Positions 1 to 4,776 of a stretch of 4,776 bases of DNA are shown here, one piece after another. The position numbers and the translations under genes were made by a program. The stretch comes from a virus (taxonomy: Duplodnaviria; Heunggongvirae; Uroviricota; Caudoviricetes), in IMG/VR virus record IMGVR_UViG_2617271086_000001, positions 1 to 4,776 of that record. One strand, given 5' to 3'. Below the pieces are notes generated by a model, which was given only the letters and a program-made list of their open reading frames with translations, did no database searches and was not told where the DNA came from. Position 1 is the stretch's first letter; every line of letters begins with the position of its first letter.

Positions 1-426
1 GCAAACCTTACCGTTGCTACGTCAGAACAATGGCGTGATAAGCAAACTGGAGAGCAAAAGGAGCAGACGGAGTGGCACCGTGTGGTAATGAGCGGGAAAC
101 TGGCAGAAATTGCCAGCGAATATCTGCGAAAAGGCTCTGAGGTTTATCTTGAAGGCAAATTGCGGACAAGAAAATGGCAGGATCAAAGCGGACAGGATCG
201 GTTCACTACCGAAGTCATCGTGGGCGTTGGTGGAACCATGCAAATGCTTGGTGGCAAGCAAGGAGGCAATGAACAGTCTTCACCTCAGCGAAATAACGGT
301 CAGCAACAAAGACAGCAACCTCAGCAGCAAGGGAATCACAGCGAACCACCTATGGATTTTGACGACGATATCCCCTTTGCACCAGTAACTCTCCCCTTCC
401 CTCGTCACGCTATTCACGCAATTTAA
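1..426 (+). CDS. ssb: Single-stranded DNA-binding protein, 5'-truncated by the window edge (frame 1 is open from base 1)
   Basis: Translation from base 1 gives ...[68 protein letters not shown]..., closely matching the OB-fold core of E. coli SSB as recalled from memory; Gly/Gln-rich linker; [11 protein letters not shown] acidic tip motif (nt 346-378) followed by an unusual 15-codon extension before TAA at 424-426. Confidence 0.9.
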
Positions 427-434
427 GGACTTAC

Positions 435-983
435 ATGAATCACTTAATGGTTGACCTTGAAACAATGGGCAACGGGCCATACGCGCCAGTTATTTCTATT
501 GGGGCGGTATTCTTTGACCCGAATACCGGAGAAACAGGAGAAGAGTTCTCGGTAAATATCTCGCTTGAGTCATCAATGCGATATCGGGCGCGTCCTGACG
601 CTTCAACGATTTTATGGTGGCTGGAACAGAGTGAAGAAGCCAGAAAATCGCTAACCAGCAACACTCAGGAGCTTTCAACGGCTCTTTCATGGTTATCTGA
701 ATTCATCATAAAGAACGCTAACCACAAATTCGTTCAGGTTTGGGGGAATGGAGCATCATTTGACTGCGTTATTCTCCGCAACAGTTATTCGCTGACAGGA
801 CAGCCAGTTCCGTGGCAGTGGTGGAATGACCGCGACGTAAGAACAATCGTCGAGCTTGGAAAGGTAATAGGATTTGACCCTAAGCGAGATATGCCATTCA
901 AAGGAACTCGCCACAACGCGCTTGATGATGCCATCCACCAAGCCAAATACGTTTCAGCAATCTGGAAAAAATTAGCTAAATAA
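435..983 (+). CDS. DnaQ-like DEDDh 3'-5' exonuclease (RNase T/epsilon-like fold)
   Basis: 182-aa ORF with AAGGA Shine-Dalgarno 5 nt upstream of ATG 435; Exo I-like MVDLETMG, Exo II-like WGNGASFDC, Exo III-like HNALDDAIHQAKY motifs; start 9 nt after the ssb stop. Confidence 0.75.
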   Translation: MNHLMVDLETMGNGPYAPVISIGAVFFDPNTGETGEEFSVNISLESSMRYRARPDASTILWWLEQSEEARKSLTSNTQELSTALSWLSEFIIKNANHKFVQVWGNGASFDCVILRNSYSLTGQPVPWQWWNDRDVRTIVELGKVIGFDPKRDMPFKGTRHNALDDAIHQAKYVSAIWKKLAK

Positions 984-999
984 TCAACAGGAGAAAAAC

Positions 1000-1296
1000 A
1001 TGCCAGCGCCTCTGTATGGTGCGGATGACCCGCGCCGCTGTTCCGGCAATTCCGTATCGGAGGTGCTGGATAAATTCAGAAAAAACTACGACCTGATAAT
1101 GTCGCTACCGCAGGAAACGAAAGAGGAAAAGGAATTTCGCCACTGTATATGGCTTGCAGAGAAAGAAGAACGCGAGCGAATTTACCAGACATCAATCCGA
1201 CCATTCCGCAAAGCCACATATACCCACTCCCCTGAATATATCGACCCGCGCCTGCGTAATTACCGCTCACGCTATGGCGCTATCAGTAATGACTGA
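1000..1296 (+). CDS. Phage early protein, hypothetical; possibly Abc2-like anti-RecBCD protein (recollection only, unverified)
   Basis: 98-aa ORF with AGGAG SD about 8 nt upstream of ATG 1000; charged, Arg/Lys-rich; the N-terminus [14 protein letters not shown] resembles my memory of P22 Abc2-family proteins; it sits directly downstream of the ssb/exonuclease genes. Confidence 0.5.
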
Positions 1297-1306
1297 GGAA
1301 TTTACC

Positions 1307-1471
1307 ATGAGAGGACTTGCATACAATCCCGGCATTCTTCCGGCAGAAATGATTATTCGCCAACGCGTAAAGCCAATGCCATCGAGAGAGGAATTGCTTA
1401 AGAGAAATTCTTTTCCATCAGTGAATCAAAACAAATATCTGAATGCGATGTTGCGGAGTGGGAAGAAATGA
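1307..1471 (+). CDS. Hypothetical small phage protein (54 aa)
   Basis: ATG 1307 preceded by GAGG (1295-1298) at 8 nt spacing; stop overlaps the next start in an ATGA junction (1468-1471). The track's longer 1154 start would overlap the preceding gene and lacks an SD. Confidence 0.45.
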
Positions 1472-1881
1472 AACAAATGTCACTAATTGAGATGGATGGA
1501 TTTCTTAAAGGTAAATGCATCCCAAGTGATTTAAAGGTTAACGAAACAAACGCTGAATATCTGGTGCGTAAATTTGCTGAAGCGGAGGCCAAGTGCGCGG
1601 CGCTGGCAGCGGAGAATGCGGCGCTTAAACAGTCGGAGAAGGAATTTAATAACTTCTGTCGTCAGGAGTACTACGGTTGGGAGGACAACTTCACGGAAAC
1701 CCCAGCCACCGATGCTTTCCTGGCTGAAGTACGGGCGCAGGGCGTGGATATGGCTCGTAACGCGATGATTGATTTTGTTGATGGTGAAGTTGGGCCAAAC
1801 AAGAACGTTCCGGGGCTGATTAGAGGCGCAGAGATATGCGTAAGTATTGCTGAACAGCTTCGCAAAGGAGGCAACCAGTGA
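1468..1881 (+). CDS. Coiled-coil phage accessory protein, possibly Ead/Ea22-like
   Basis: 137-aa ORF; Ala/Glu-rich heptad-like segment [23 protein letters not shown]; ATGA overlap with the upstream gene and GTGA overlap with the downstream gene. Confidence 0.55.
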
Positions 1882-2177
1882 CTGTATGTCTTATTGATAA
1901 ACGTCGACGTGGGCAACAAATACCATCTGTTGAAATGCCGAATCACACATGGTTTTGCGTACTTGATATCGATGGTATGGATGCGTTGGTTGACACTCGT
2001 CATTACTGCGATACCGCAACAGCTACTCCGGCGAAAGCAAAGAAAATGGCTGCTCTGATAGAAAACTGGACTCCACCTGATGGTTGGTGCAATGGGAATG
2101 ATCGAGATTGGCATGAAAAAATGAAGGGCTATATCTGCGATTTCTTACGTAAATGCAACGGATTCAGGGTGATGTGA
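1878..2177 (+). CDS. Hypothetical phage protein (99 aa, Cys/Trp/His-rich)
   Basis: GTG start at 1878 preceded by AGGAGG (1866-1871) at 6 nt spacing; GTGA overlap with the upstream stop; no recognisable family. Confidence 0.5.
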   Translation: MTVCLIDKRRRGQQIPSVEMPNHTWFCVLDIDGMDALVDTRHYCDTATATPAKAKKMAALIENWTPPDGWCNGNDRDWHEKMKGYICDFLRKCNGFRVM

Positions 2178-2178
2178 C

Positions 2179-2586
2179 ATGAACAAGATTGACTATCAGG
2201 CACTGCGTGAAGCGGCAGAGAAAGCCGGTGAAGATAAGTGGCAGGCTAAAAAAATAAATGGTGATTTTTTTGTTATTCGTCACGGTAGTTATACAAGACA
2301 GCATGGCTACACATCGTATCAACCCATTGCGGAGATTGATTGTAAGCCAGTCCGGGATTTTGTTGCCAAGGCTAATCCGGCTACCGTACTGGAATTACTG
2401 GATGAACTGGAAGCAGCAAAAAAGCGCATTGCAGAACTGGAAGCGCGGGAAATATCGCTCCCGGAACGTAGCAGCATGCTTCATCGAACAGATTTTCACG
2501 ATGATTACCAAACGGTAATGGCATACAAAGTTTCTGAAGTCATCGCTGCAATCCGCGCCGCAGGCATTCGCATCAAAGGAGAGTGA
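2179..2586 (+). CDS. Ead/Ea22-like family protein
   Basis: 135-aa ORF; N-terminal MNKIDYQALREAAEKAGEDKW and central LLDELEAAKKRIAELEAR coiled-coil are characteristic of lambdoid Ea22/Ead proteins as I recall them; starts 1 nt after the upstream stop. Confidence 0.6.
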   Translation: MNKIDYQALREAAEKAGEDKWQAKKINGDFFVIRHGSYTRQHGYTSYQPIAEIDCKPVRDFVAKANPATVLELLDELEAAKKRIAELEAREISLPERSSMLHRTDFHDDYQTVMAYKVSEVIAAIRAAGIRIKGE

Positions 2587-2587
2587 G

Positions 2588-2779
2588 ATGGACGGACAAA
2601 TATCAATCGTTCGACCAGGAGCATGTGACGATCGCGAAATACGAATAATTATTCGTCTGGCAATGTGGAAAGCAATAACTGCTCTCATTACCCCAGAAAA
2701 TCTCGCATTAGCATTAACAGGAAAGTCAGACCTGCCAGTAGAGCTAAAGCTGCGAAATGTTGAGATTAAGGTGAAATAG
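2588..2779 (+). CDS. Hypothetical small phage protein (63 aa)
   Basis: ATG 2588 with AAGGAG (2576-2581) at 6 nt spacing; 1 nt gap after the previous stop; no recognisable family. Confidence 0.45.
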   Translation: MDGQISIVRPGACDDREIRIIIRLAMWKAITALITPENLALALTGKSDLPVELKLRNVEIKVK

Positions 2780-2781
2780 CT

Positions 2782-3585
2782 ATGACCACTATTACCAAAG
2801 AACGTATCGAATTATTCATTAAAAATCCGCTTGAAAACGGGCTTACTCGTGGCGAACAAATGGAACTGGCACGAATTGCACTGGCATCACTGGAACGCGA
2901 ACAGATTCGCCACGAGCATGCCAAATGGTCTGACTCCACATTTGGCTGCGTTGGCCCCATTGGTCCACTGAAACACCTCTCAAAAGAGGCACTGGAAGCC
3001 GCAGCCGAACCAGACGATCTTAGCGAGTGGGCTGATATGCAGTTTCTGTTGTGGGATGCACAGCGCCGTGCTGGCATCAGCGATGCTGAAATTACCGCTG
3101 CTATGGAAGATAAATTGAAGATCAACATGGAGCGCCAGTGGCCTGAACCAAAAGATGGTGAGCCTCGCTTGCACATTAAAGAACCCGGCAACTCTCCGGT
3201 AATTCCGGATGGTTTATCCACGGTATGCGCTGAGGCTTATCAGGTTGTAGGAGTTATGGCAGATGCGCTTGGTGTATTCGGTGATGCAGCAGTACAGAAA
3301 GTTCTGGATAACCTGTCACAGCAAAAACTTGTTCACAGAGATGTGCTGCCGTTCTCGCTTCCGGTGACTCCGGATGGTTGGATAAGCTGTAGTGAGCGAA
3401 TGCCGGATAGCAAAACAGCCGTTCTTGTTGCCAGGGAGTTTGACAGGAAAGGTTACTGGCGAATGAAATGGGCGACTTACATCCCTGGGCATCCTGACGC
3501 TAATGATGGGTGGATAATTCCTGGTGCGTCGTGGAAACCGTCACACTGGATGCCGCTACCAGAGCCGCCGCAGGAGGCGAAATGA
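2782..3585 (+). CDS. MazG-like dATP/dGTP pyrophosphohydrolase domain (DUF550) fused to a C-terminal DUF551 domain
   Basis: 267-aa ORF; N-terminal all-alpha region with acidic clusters (ELARIALASLEREQIRHEH; EALEAAAEPDDLSEWADMQFLLWDAQ; MEDKLKINMERQWPEP) resembling MazG-type NTP pyrophosphatases; C-terminal DGWISCSERMPD...HWMPLPEPP matches the DUF551 signature as recalled; AAGGTGA SD at 7 nt spacing. Confidence 0.7.
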   Translation: MTTITKERIELFIKNPLENGLTRGEQMELARIALASLEREQIRHEHAKWSDSTFGCVGPIGPLKHLSKEALEAAAEPDDLSEWADMQFLLWDAQRRAGISDAEITAAMEDKLKINMERQWPEPKDGEPRLHIKEPGNSPVIPDGLSTVCAEAYQVVGVMADALGVFGDAAVQKVLDNLSQQKLVHRDVLPFSLPVTPDGWISCSERMPDSKTAVLVAREFDRKGYWRMKWATYIPGHPDANDGWIIPGASWKPSHWMPLPEPPQEAK

Positions 3586-3863
3586 TGGACTCCTTCGCAA
3601 AATATACAATTATTGACTGGATGGCCTTCCTTCAGGTTTTGCTCATCTGGTTTTATATGGCTTACAGGAGTGGGCAGTGGATTGTCAGTGTAGCCTGTAG
3701 CAAGGGATGGCGTTGGTGGAACCGAAAGAATAAAAAAGCACTGGCATTGGATTCGTTTTACGAAGCATTCAATCTTAACAGCCTTCAGCCTGGTTCTGTC
3801 ATTGTAGTCACCACTCAAAGCGGCATGACCATTCAGATTCATAAACCAAAAGAGGAAAAATGA
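3582..3863 (+). CDS. Small membrane protein (about 93 aa, one predicted N-terminal transmembrane helix)
   Basis: AGGAGG (3572-3577) upstream of tandem ATGs at 3582 and 3585; ATGA overlap with the DUF550/551 stop; hydrophobic segment YTIIDWMAFLQVLLIWFYMAY followed by a basic stretch WRWWNRKNKK (positive-inside topology). Confidence 0.55.
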   Translation: MMDSFAKYTIIDWMAFLQVLLIWFYMAYRSGQWIVSVACSKGWRWWNRKNKKALALDSFYEAFNLNSLQPGSVIVVTTQSGMTIQIHKPKEEK

Positions 3864-3949
3864 TGTGGCCTATATGTGTTAATTGCGGACGGATGTGCCT
3901 ATCTGGATGGTGCCGAAAGTGCGACAAATGCACGAAGAAAAGACAATAA
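3860..3949 (+). CDS. Cys-rich micropeptide (29 aa, MMWPICVNCGRMCLSGWCRKCDKCTKKRQ), putative zinc-ribbon-like
   Basis: Absent from the ORF track (too short). Tandem ATGs at 3860 and 3863 overlap the upstream stop (TGA 3861-3863); AGAGG at 3851-3855; six Cys including a CxxC pair and a C-x2-C-x2-C run; followed by a terminator-like hairpin. Confidence 0.35.
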   Translation: MMWPICVNCGRMCLSGWCRKCDKCTKKRQ

Positions 3950-3953
3950 CAAT

Positions 3954-3980
3954 CCTCGCACTCGCGGGGATTTCTTTTAT
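3954..3980 (+). terminator. Putative intrinsic terminator
   Basis: Stem CCTCGC (3954-3959), loop ACTC, stem GCGGGG (3964-3969) with one G-U wobble, then T-rich tract ATTTCTTTTAT; lies right after the micropeptide stop in the only sizeable intergenic gap. Confidence 0.35.
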
Positions 3981-4017
3981 CTGAACTCGCTACGGCGGTT
4001 TTTTATGGAGATGATAA

Positions 4018-4185
4018 ATGCACTTCCGAGTCACAGGTGAATGGAATGGAGAGCCATTCGACAGAGTTATCGAAGCAGAGGACATCAATGACTGCTATAA
4101 CCACTGGATGATATGGGCGCAGATAGCACATGCAGAAGTAACCAATATTCGAATTGAAGAACTGAAAGAACACCAAGCCGCCTGA
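4018..4185 (+). CDS. Hypothetical small protein (55 aa), moron-like
   Basis: ATG 4018 with GGAG (4007-4010) at 7 nt spacing; translation MHFRVTGEWNGEPFDRVIEAEDINDCYNHWMIWAQIAHAEVTNIRIEELKEHQAA; absent from the ORF track; bracketed by two terminator-like hairpins. Confidence 0.5.
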   Translation: MHFRVTGEWNGEPFDRVIEAEDINDCYNHWMIWAQIAHAEVTNIRIEELKEHQAA

Positions 4186-4200
4186 TGGCGGTTTCTTTTT
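4175..4200 (+). terminator. Putative intrinsic terminator
   Basis: GC stem CCGCC (4178-4182) / GGCGG (4187-4191), loop TGAT, extended by flanking A-T and G-U pairs, followed by TTTCTTTTT; overlaps the stop codon of the 55-aa ORF. Confidence 0.5.
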
Positions 4201-4215
4201 GCCTGGAGAATTAAG

Positions 4216-4407
4216 ATGACCGATACCAGCCTGATTCCTGAGAAAGAAGTGATGAACAAGCTCGGTGTTTCATCACGTCAGACAATCTGGAACTATACCA
4301 AACGGCACGGATTTCCAAAGCCAGTCAGAACCCACCCCAAATCATACCTTCGTGAAGCTGTTGAGGGGTGGATTCTTAACGGTGGCGTTAATCAGAAATG
4401 CTCCTGA
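4216..4407 (+). CDS. xis: AlpA/Xis-family excisionase / phage transcriptional regulator (helix-turn-helix)
   Basis: 63-aa ORF with GGAG (4204-4207) at 8 nt spacing; EKEVMNKLGVSSRQTIWNYTKRHGFPKPVRTHPKSYLREAVEGWI fits the AlpA/excisionase HTH pattern (ligand-free small DNA binder, conserved FPKP and W); adjacent to the integrase. Confidence 0.8.
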   Translation: MTDTSLIPEKEVMNKLGVSSRQTIWNYTKRHGFPKPVRTHPKSYLREAVEGWILNGGVNQKCS

Positions 4408-4776
4408 TGTGCCAGAACAATTTATCAGCGTGAAGCTCATACGCTTTGCGCTGAGCCTCTATCCAGTCGTGTTTATTGTATACGGACATTATCCCGCCAA
4501 GTTCATGACCGAGCATTCGCTCAGTAACATGAGGCTCGACATTCATCTCGGACAGACGTGTAACAAGCGTTCTTCTGAAATCGTGTGTTCGCCAGTAACC
4601 GAGATCCATCCCTCCCCTTATTCTATTTACGAATCGGTTGGCTGCAGCGATGCTGATCGGTTTGTTTATGTCTTCTCCAGGGAAAAGAACATCATTGTAC
4701 GTTGTCATGGCCTTTTCGAGGAAAGGCTTAATTTGTTCGAAGATTGGACGGCGGATAACATTACCCATCTTGCTAT
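4388..4776 (-). CDS. int: Tyrosine recombinase (phage integrase), C-terminal catalytic region; 5' part lies beyond the window
   Basis: Minus-strand frame open to the window edge; HDFRRT (His-x-x-Arg box), MLGHE and VYNKHDW (catalytic Tyr region) motifs; stop at 4388-4390 (TAA on the minus strand). Confidence 0.9.
   Translation of the reverse strand, partial: SKMGNVIRRPIFEQIKPFLEKAMTTYNDVLFPGEDINKPISIAAANRFVNRIRGGMDLGYWRTHDFRRTLVTRLSEMNVEPHVTERMLGHELGGIMSVYNKHDWIEAQRKAYELHADKLFWHIRSISD

Follow-up and report, generated by a model that had tools for sequence, protein, structure and literature searches.

A modular early gene of a P22-like Escherichia coli prophage with a probable MazZ-type (DUF550) pyrophosphohydrolase domain and an exchangeable DUF551 cassette

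MazZ of cyanophage S-2L is a crystallised (d)GTP-specific pyrophosphohydrolase with a MazG-HisE fold (PDB 7ODY; bioRxiv 10.1101/2021.04.30.442174). The reaction given for the DUF550 family, now termed dATP-dGTP_PPHyd (PF04447), is the conversion of dGTP, or of dATP and dGTP, to the deoxynucleoside monophosphate (dNMP) and pyrophosphate (PPi) (PMC12884076). Naming differs between sources: the S-2L preprint (bioRxiv 10.1101/2021.04.30.442174) equates DUF550 with the phiVC8-like MazZ-2, and a 2026 paper in Nucleic Acids Research takes DUF550 to be MazZ and has a separate model for MazZ-2. A second domain, DUF551 (PF04448), has been described as a portable domain of the mosaic exo-xis proteins in the nuclear magnetic resonance study of Ea22 (PMC10834534). 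Both domains are present in a single gene at nucleotide (nt) positions 2782–3585 of a 4,776-nt stretch of viral DNA, which is positions 1–4,776 of IMG/VR record IMGVR_UViG_2617271086_000001; the whole stretch is termed the window. An earlier note, made from the sequence alone, described the gene as a MazG-like nucleotide pyrophosphohydrolase fused to DUF551.

The open reading frame (positions 2782..3585, + strand) has an ATG start and a TGA stop and encodes a 267 amino acid (aa) chain. The explanation that is preferred, and that is considered probable, is that the product is a modular early protein of a P22-like/lambdoid prophage in which a MazZ-type, (d)GTP-preferring pyrophosphohydrolase is combined with a generic DUF551 cassette. 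A hidden Markov model (HMM) search shows PF04447 at aa positions 42–137 (142.4 bits with a cut-off of 23, E = 5.4e-42), and this match spans model positions 1–96 of 97. PF04448 is found at aa positions 199–264 over the full length of its model (75.8 bits with a cut-off of 22, E = 4.9e-21). Thus both domain names given in the earlier note are borne out.

S-2L MazZ (7ODY) itself scores above the PF04447 threshold, at 44.4 bits. In addition, an HMM built from 126 DUF550 sequences with S-2L excluded recovers MazZ/7ODY (29.1 bits, E = 7.8e-6 in a PDB-sized search). This HMM replaced a match between 7ODY and the profile of an alignment termed A3; that match was discarded as circular because A3 includes S-2L. 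The canonical MazG family, PF03819, gave no match at E≤0.01 in a Pfam scan of the protein, and S-2L MazZ shows only sub-threshold matches to the MazG-like, PRA-PH and MazG models. On these profile comparisons, the window protein is related to canonical MazG at the superfamily level only. Its placement in the all-alpha MazG/HisE superfamily, as the earlier note had it, is supported by homology to S-2L MazZ and by an intact catalytic motif.

The catalytic motif was located by two MAFFT alignments, A2 and A3, which take in intermediate sequences from Klebsiella, Mycobacterium and Pseudomonas phages. E69, E72, E82 and D85 of the window protein align with E35, E38, E50 and D53 of MazZ, which are the Mn2+ ligands (bioRxiv 10.1101/2021.04.30.442174). 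D92 aligns with D60, the MazZ residue that contacts the guanine 2-amino group (bioRxiv 10.1101/2021.04.30.442174), and K111, N115 and W120 correspond to MazZ K76, N80 and W85; these assignments are the same in A2 and A3. H131 corresponds to MazZ H95 in A2 only, and its column is not invariant in A3. Across 149 representatives chosen at 50% identity, the mapped metal-ligand and pocket residues show conservation of 90% or more, which indicates selection for activity. Because the four metal ligands and the guanine-contact aspartate are all present, the DUF550 domain is likely an active pyrophosphohydrolase. The retention of that aspartate as D92 points to dGTP/GTP as the most likely preferred substrates, i.e. 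the domain probably has a guanine-nucleotide preference.

According to this explanation, the gene would be transcribed with the rest of the early-left (exo-xis/ea) operon. By homology, DUF550 would form a MazG-HisE oligomer with active sites at the subunit interfaces, would bind Mg2+ or Mn2+ through E69, E72, E82 and D85, and would cleave a purine (d)NTP (nucleoside triphosphate) to (d)NMP and pyrophosphate. As to the physiological role, the best guess is that the enzyme would act early and in a non-essential way, by reshaping or cleaning the pool of guanine nucleotides when a cell is infected or the prophage is induced. The substrates in the pool might be dGTP, GTP and possibly (p)ppGpp or damaged purine dNTPs, and the role would be independent of Z-DNA synthesis, i.e. 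of the making of DNA with the Z base, 2-aminoadenine.

There are several points that weigh against the preferred explanation. Pairwise BLAST of MazZ with the window DUF550 domain yielded nothing, and tblastn of MazZ against phage genomes yielded only S-2L itself; because the pairwise searches were empty, the link between MazZ and the window protein was made by way of profiles. A full-length AlphaFold2 model computed with 43 close homologues has a mean predicted local distance difference test (pLDDT) value of 42.8, although its DUF550 region is predicted to be helical. Since this model failed, the fold is assigned by sequence homology to 7ODY. MazZ N20, which contacts guanine O6 and is S-2L-specific (bioRxiv 10.1101/2021.04.30.442174), is not conserved in the window protein, and specificity may therefore differ from that of MazZ. 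The Pfam name derives in part from a DUF5664-DUF550 fusion in phage SH-Ab 15497 whose other domain is also an NTP pyrophosphohydrolase (PMC12884076), so that the activity on dATP may lie outside DUF550. No enzyme assay of an enterobacterial EaA-type DUF550 protein was found in the literature searched. The physiological role is a guess, and the gene neighborhood points to no particular pathway.

Other searches added little. A PDB sequence search with the whole protein gave chance-level matches only, and the protein has no match in NCBIfam. A profile search for diverse DUF550 members was dominated by near-identical E. coli entries and gave one divergent sequence (P0270). Literature searches on P22 EaA and on MazG with prophage yielded nothing specific to the DUF550 family.

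DUF550 was found in 513 phage genome records, mostly of Klebsiella T1-like (Webervirus), P22-like (where it is termed “EaA”), Mycobacterium and Pseudomonas phages. Since it is widespread in phages that do not make Z-DNA, the family appears to have a role outside of Z-DNA synthesis.

Two of these phages show other arrangements of the domain. In the Pseudomonas phage Baskent_P6 (L010:1312-2474) a 288-aa DUF550 protein is encoded directly 5′ of a DUF4406 gene and 3′ of a DNA cytosine methyltransferase gene. DUF4406 is a relative of the nucleoside 2-deoxyribosyltransferases, and with such neighbors DUF550 may belong to a nucleotide-salvage or base-modification setting in some non-Z phages. The Mycobacterium phage ChotaBhai (L009:1459-1776) has a stand-alone 105-aa DUF550, a minimal single-domain form, which lies between genes for a “hydrolase” and a DnaQ-like exonuclease.

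The second domain of the window protein, DUF551, behaves differently from the enzyme domain. Among 40 close homologues, median pairwise identity is 98% over the first ~199 residues as opposed to 21% for the DUF551 cores. These 40 proteins have at least 13 core types, 39–66 residues long, and a larger set has 33 types. While DUF550 is present in 143 of the 149 representatives, only 46 of the 149 carry DUF551 as well, and DUF550 is present in only 2 of the 120 best DUF551 profile matches. The core type found in the window (at ≥75% identity) occurs on at least seven N-terminal architectures. Some of these are without DUF550: P0150 (leader only), P0129 and P0191 (leader with other modules), 933W L0140 (Ead/Ea22) and Louie CDS0022. 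Conversely, gp35 of Escherichia phage ev017 has an identical sequence over the first 200 residues, followed by a different C-terminus that gives no Pfam match to DUF551.

The allele variation, the breakpoints (below) and the carriers without DUF550 show DUF551 to be a generic C-terminal cassette and not a dedicated regulator of the enzyme. The suggestion of the earlier note that the fused domain may target or regulate the enzyme thus does not hold in the sense of a dedicated partner.

Certain properties of DUF551 are maintained in spite of this diversity. The boundary motifs W-I-x-C-S-E-R-M-P and H-W-M-P-L-P are invariant or nearly so in alignments A4 and A5, and a pattern of hydrophobic and aromatic positions is kept between them. 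AlphaFold2 modelling of DUF551 alone with 109 diverse sequences gave a pLDDT of 54.5. The full-length and the DUF551-only models, both of low confidence, each display a beta-hairpin and a C-terminal strand in DUF551. This suggests one small beta-rich fold that has strongly diverged, and the domain is probably a small beta-rich binding module. A search of PDB with a DUF551 profile gave nothing significant (best E-value = 0.22), and a Foldseek comparison of the DUF551 model with PDB and BFVD gave a best E-value of ~0.5. An origin of the variation from a diversity-generating retroelement was weighed and rejected, because the cores differ by wholesale replacement and by changes in length (39–66 aa); in addition, there is no reverse transcriptase in the window or the longer contexts.

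Nucleotide comparisons locate the points at which the gene was joined. Positions 2782–3381 form a block that is like ev017 gp35 (99% nt identity) and positions 3360–3589 a block that is like 933W L0140 (95%); the 22 nt at 3360..3381 are their sole overlap. Homology to the DUF550 gene of the EC38 prophage ends at position 3214, and the 28-nt stretch there matches the 933W junction. When compared with two other alleles, positions 2782–3403 have 93%–100% nt identity, positions 3404–3545 only 13%–53%, and positions 3546–3575 again 87%–93%; beyond these limits, on either outer side, the sequences are unrelated. The features are collected in Table 1.

Table 1. Features of the gene, its parts and its immediate surroundings (nt positions in the window).
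Feature	Position	Strand	Basis
Shine-Dalgarno-like AAGGTGA, 7 nt 5′ of the ATG	2768..2774	+	Direct sequence reading
Complete gene, modular protein (leader, DUF550, middle module, DUF551)	2782..3585	+	Open reading frame list; Pfam; identical NCBI/nr protein P0001
N-terminal leader module (aa 1–38, MTTITKERIELF...ARIALASLE), predicted helical	2782..2895	+	Separate PHROGs phrog_3323, 10451, 660
DUF550/dATP-dGTP_PPHyd domain, putative MazZ-type all-alpha NTP pyrophosphohydrolase	2905..3192	+	PF04447; HMM without S-2L finds MazZ
Putative catalytic metal-binding motif E69-x2-E72 ... E82-x2-D85	2986..3036	+	Columns invariant in comparison with S-2L MazZ (A2, A3)
Junction 1 (GNSPVIPDGL), palindrome TCCGGTAATTCCGGA at 3195–3209	3187..3214	+	End of EC38 homology; 933W match
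Middle helical module (aa ~145–192, LSTVCAEAYQVVGVMADALGVFGD...)	3215..3357	+	phrog_28884
Junction 2 (LPVTPDGW), palindrome TCCGGTGACTCCGGA at 3360–3374	3360..3381	+	Overlap of ev017-like and 933W-like blocks
DUF551 domain (aa 199–264)	3376..3573	+	PF04448
Variable DUF551 core cassette (aa ~209–254)	3404..3545	+	Drop in nt identity to two alleles
Conserved 3′ island, encodes HWMPLPEPPQ, ends just before the next gene's Shine-Dalgarno	3546..3575	+	87%–93% nt identity, unrelated flanks
DUF4752 gene, neighbor and not conserved partner	3582..3863	+	PF15944, E = 1.9e-36

The two breakpoints fall in linkers of nearly the same sequence (GNSPVIPDGL and LPVTPDGW), and each linker is encoded by a 15-nt palindrome, TCCGG-N5-CCGGA. 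There are exactly two copies in the window, where 0.01 are expected, and both are at the module junctions of this gene. 933W, Louie, ev017 and every other allele examined have the palindrome at these junctions too. It may promote recombination, or it may only mirror the codons of a Pro-x-x-Pro-Asp linker.

The modules flanking the enzyme domain are also found apart from it. The leader, for which a low-confidence model has helices at residues 6–14 and 23–50, is joined straight to DUF551, or to other modules, in P0150, P0191 and P0183, which lack DUF550. The middle module is present without DUF550 in P0129, P0144, P0183 and P0256, and it is situated 5′ of DUF550 in P0147. The protein consists of three reusable modules (leader, middle and DUF551) plus DUF550, joined at short proline-rich linkers by modular recombination. 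Many E. coli genomes (P0273–P0388) have a short, ~172-aa direct fusion of DUF550 and DUF551 that has neither leader nor middle module; thus at least three size classes of the DUF550-DUF551 fusion are in circulation.

The window is identical to an E. coli draft contig (CBWG010000058.1, GCA_000529355.1). The gene at 2782–3585 has been called on three contigs, and two longer contigs with the identical gene show that the prophage adjoins sbcB. The gene order is: a Rad52-type recombinase, ssb, an Rv2179c-like 3′-5′ exonuclease, abc2 (anti-RecBCD), DUF2737, an unnamed 137-aa open reading frame, DUF7739, Ead/Ea22, a 63-aa open reading frame, the gene at 2782–3585, DUF4752, a 55-aa open reading frame, a xis-like helix-turn-helix protein and int. 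A LexA-family repressor marks the start of this arm in a related complete genome. The region is the early-left (exo-xis/ea) operon of a P22-like/lambdoid E. coli prophage. The earlier note had placed the gene in an operon of the phage accessory arm, and the presence of the known anti-RecBCD gene abc2 in the same operon agrees with this. No sigma-70-like promoters are seen in window positions 1–4776, where 6.0 ± 2.4 are expected from shuffled sequences; this agrees with transcription as one long message whose promoter lies upstream.

NCBI/nr already has an identical protein (P0001) under the names “DUF550 domain-containing protein” and “Phage EaA protein”. Both domains are found in all 120 of the closest relatives, which have at least 78% identity and come from Escherichia, and an exhaustive search of 1.84 billion cluster representatives yielded 4,736 related clusters. 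As the identical protein and these related clusters are already deposited, the observation of a DUF550-DUF551 gene restates public annotation. The gene is common, ordinary and already annotated in E. coli prophages.

The stop codon of the gene overlaps the start codon of the DUF4752 gene (ATGA, positions 3582–3585), and an AGGAGG Shine-Dalgarno sequence is present at 3572–3577. The DUF4752 protein has one N-terminal hydrophobic stretch, at aa positions 8–28, with a Kyte-Doolittle peak of 1.65; a membrane protein is plausible on this basis. The earlier note took the overlap to suggest a functional unit. The overlap is real, but tight junctions are common in this operon, where 3 of the 10 same-strand junctions are 4-nt overlaps and 3 more are gaps of 1–2 nt; the ATGA overlap is therefore ordinary operon packing. 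Moreover, the next gene after P0086 and P0071, two widespread close homologues with ~82%–84% identity, is a DUF4222 gene at a distance of 84 and 66 nt respectively, ev017 gp35 is followed by an ASCH-domain gene, and nt homology to other alleles ends at the stop codon. Comparison with relatives thus removes the features that had appeared special, i.e. the dedicated fusion and the coupling to a membrane partner.

Other observations were made in the operon. Two terminator-like hairpins are found on the + strand at 3951–3972 and 4175–4194, between the last small open reading frames and xis. Positions 435–983, between ssb and abc2, encode a protein of the Rv2179c-like 3′-5′ exoribonuclease family (E = 2.9e-73); this family is characterised as a ribonuclease, yet it is placed here among DNA recombination genes. 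The 137-aa open reading frame (positions 1468–1881) has no Pfam family and overlaps each neighbor by 4 nt. Its N-terminal ~50 residues resemble phrog_14548/583 and its C-terminal part phrog_614/492/368; thus it also looks mosaic. Rfam and tRNA scans were empty.

Several other explanations of the gene may be weighed against the preferred one. One idea put forward in the earlier note was that the enzyme could act against host defences. In the form weighed here, it would destroy nucleotides made or used by host immunity, e.g. ddhGTP produced by viperins, dITP/ITP from RADAR-type deaminases, or (p)ppGpp in TIR-type abortive infection, with DUF551 directing it to a host target. Cyclic oligonucleotides lack a free 5′-triphosphate and are unlikely substrates for the all-alpha NTP-pyrophosphohydrolase superfamily. 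The location in an early accessory operon with abc2 is consistent with a counter-defence function, as is the extreme diversity of the DUF551 cores, which resembles arms-race variation, but DUF551 is not specific to the enzyme. A precedent is Atd1, a phage MazG-like protein that has ppGpp as a substrate for hydrolysis and gives protection from TIR-STING and retron-TIR (bioRxiv 10.1101/2022.06.09.495361). However, Atd1 is described as a protein with a MazG catalytic domain, and as the window protein has no PF03819 match, kinship of the two would be at the superfamily level at most. S-2L MazZ is not selective on the 2′-OH (bioRxiv 10.1101/2021.04.30.442174), which makes sugar-modified guanine NTPs conceivable substrates; on the other hand, no data linking DUF550 to any defence system were found in the literature searched (including searches for viperin with pyrophosphohydrolase), and PADLOC gave no match for the window protein or six neighbors. 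A counter-defence enzyme is considered possible but unlikely. Alternatively, the enzyme could be a house-cleaner: it would remove damaged or non-canonical purine dNTPs such as 8-oxo-dGTP, 2-oxo-dATP and dITP, so that the phage genome is copied faithfully when DNA damage or oxidative stress induces the prophage. House-cleaning is the role classically assigned to the all-alpha superfamily (MazG, RS21-C6). One study reports that the exo-xis region affects H2O2-triggered induction of Stx prophages (PMC4699033), and two papers cite earlier work in which loss of the DUF551 protein YfdS leaves cells H2O2-sensitive (PMC4776307, PMC10834534). The YfdS link concerns DUF551 and not DUF550, however, and canonical dGTP/GTP or dATP are the substrates of those family members that have been characterised; an assay with damaged nucleotides was not found in the literature searched. 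House-cleaning as the specific role is judged a somewhat weaker candidate still.

Two further explanations concern the pathway and the activity itself. In S-2L and related phages, the enzyme supplies dGMP to PurZ for Z-DNA synthesis, and the enzymes of that pathway and the window protein fall into one Pfam family. Whereas datZ, mazZ and purZ are adjacent in S-2L, neither an adenylosuccinate-synthetase-like (PurZ) gene nor an HD-domain (DatZ) gene is present in the window or on the 14.6-kb contigs that carry the identical gene, and for this reason a part in Z-DNA synthesis is rejected; most of the 513 phage records with DUF550 are likewise ordinary Klebsiella, Salmonella and Mycobacterium phages. 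The chance that the gene serves this pathway is close to nil. Alternatively, DUF550 could be catalytically inactive and the protein could act by protein-protein contacts only, in the manner of the Ea22-type developmental regulators. Related mosaic Ea22 proteins affect the lysis-lysogeny decision with no known enzymatic activity (PMC7093339, PMC10834534), and the leader, middle and DUF551 modules do exist without DUF550. But the metal ligands and most of the mapped pocket residues are present, and their conservation in the 149 divergent representatives is unexpected for a dead enzyme; a non-catalytic scaffold is thus very improbable. An active, guanine-preferring pyrophosphohydrolase with a generic cassette remains the preferred explanation.

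A broader proposal concerns DUF551. Ea22 is a tetramer (PMC10834534), and MazZ-type enzymes are expected to be tetramers (bioRxiv 10.1101/2021.04.30.442174). With two of its carriers tetrameric or expected to be so, DUF551 would be displayed in several copies, which suits a binding module that relies on avidity. DUF551 might be a recognition module, shuffled by recombination and highly diversified, by which early proteins that form oligomers are tethered to host targets that vary, for instance proteins of defence or replication; this is speculative and rather doubtful. If it is true, the conserved proline-rich palindromic junctions and the conserved 3′ island would allow free exchange among lambdoid prophages, and the early proteins so tethered would include this guanine-nucleotide pyrophosphohydrolase, Ea22-type coiled coils and leader-only proteins. 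The window gene would then be a single allele in a combinatorial system of effectors and adaptors that an arms race has shaped.

The gene itself is routine, with close relatives in thousands of E. coli prophages. DUF550 enzymes, however, have been characterised only in Z-DNA phages, and most members of the family (P22-like EaA, Klebsiella T1-like phages, mycobacteriophages) are without PurZ. The purpose of a dGTP-type pyrophosphohydrolase in an ordinary phage is therefore an easily testable question. The DUF551 cassette structure with its palindromic junctions offers a way to study the assembly of exo-xis/ea proteins and to ask which part of them might recognise a host target.

The enzyme domain is best compared with S-2L MazZ. 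The two have in common the PF04447 family, the metal ligands, the aspartate that contacts guanine N2, the lysine, asparagine and tryptophan contributed by a second subunit, and a C-terminal R-x-H-I strand motif. They differ in that identity is ~27%–30% and MazZ E34 is replaced by a lysine (K68) in the window protein. Moreover, MazZ is a 105-aa single domain in a datZ-mazZ-purZ cluster, whereas the window protein carries three further modules and its gene has neither PurZ nor DatZ close by. The protein of Acinetobacter phage SH-Ab 15497, which named the Pfam family, also has DUF550 fused to another module and converts dNTP to dNMP and PPi (PMC12884076). By its description, the partner there is DUF5664 and the phage has Z-DNA; here the partners are the leader, the helical module and DUF551.

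Atd1 of Pectobacterium phage PcCB7V is comparable as a phage-encoded MazG-type pyrophosphatase that acts on a guanine nucleotide and is encoded in an accessory/anti-defence region (bioRxiv 10.1101/2022.06.09.495361). It differs, as far as its description goes, in having the MazG catalytic domain.

The closest systems in gene arrangement are ev017 gp35, with 99% nt identity over the first 600 nt and the same position in the operon, and eaA of the Salmonella P22-like phages, a DUF550 gene with ~80% aa identity in the domain and again the same operon position. In ev017 gp35, unlike the window gene, the C-terminus is a different sequence that is not Pfam DUF551. 933W L0140 (Ead/Ea22 with DUF551) shows the reverse relationship: it has the same cassette type, with 95% nt identity, and 88% aa identity over aa positions 186–265, but its N-terminal part is an Ead/Ea22 coiled coil and not an enzyme. 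By its domain content, L0140 is probably the “Ea22 V2” variant of PMC10834534. YfdS of the E. coli prophage CPS-53 is also a DUF551 protein and is grouped with L0140 as a close system. The window gene thus shares its first 600 nt with one of these genes and its cassette with another.

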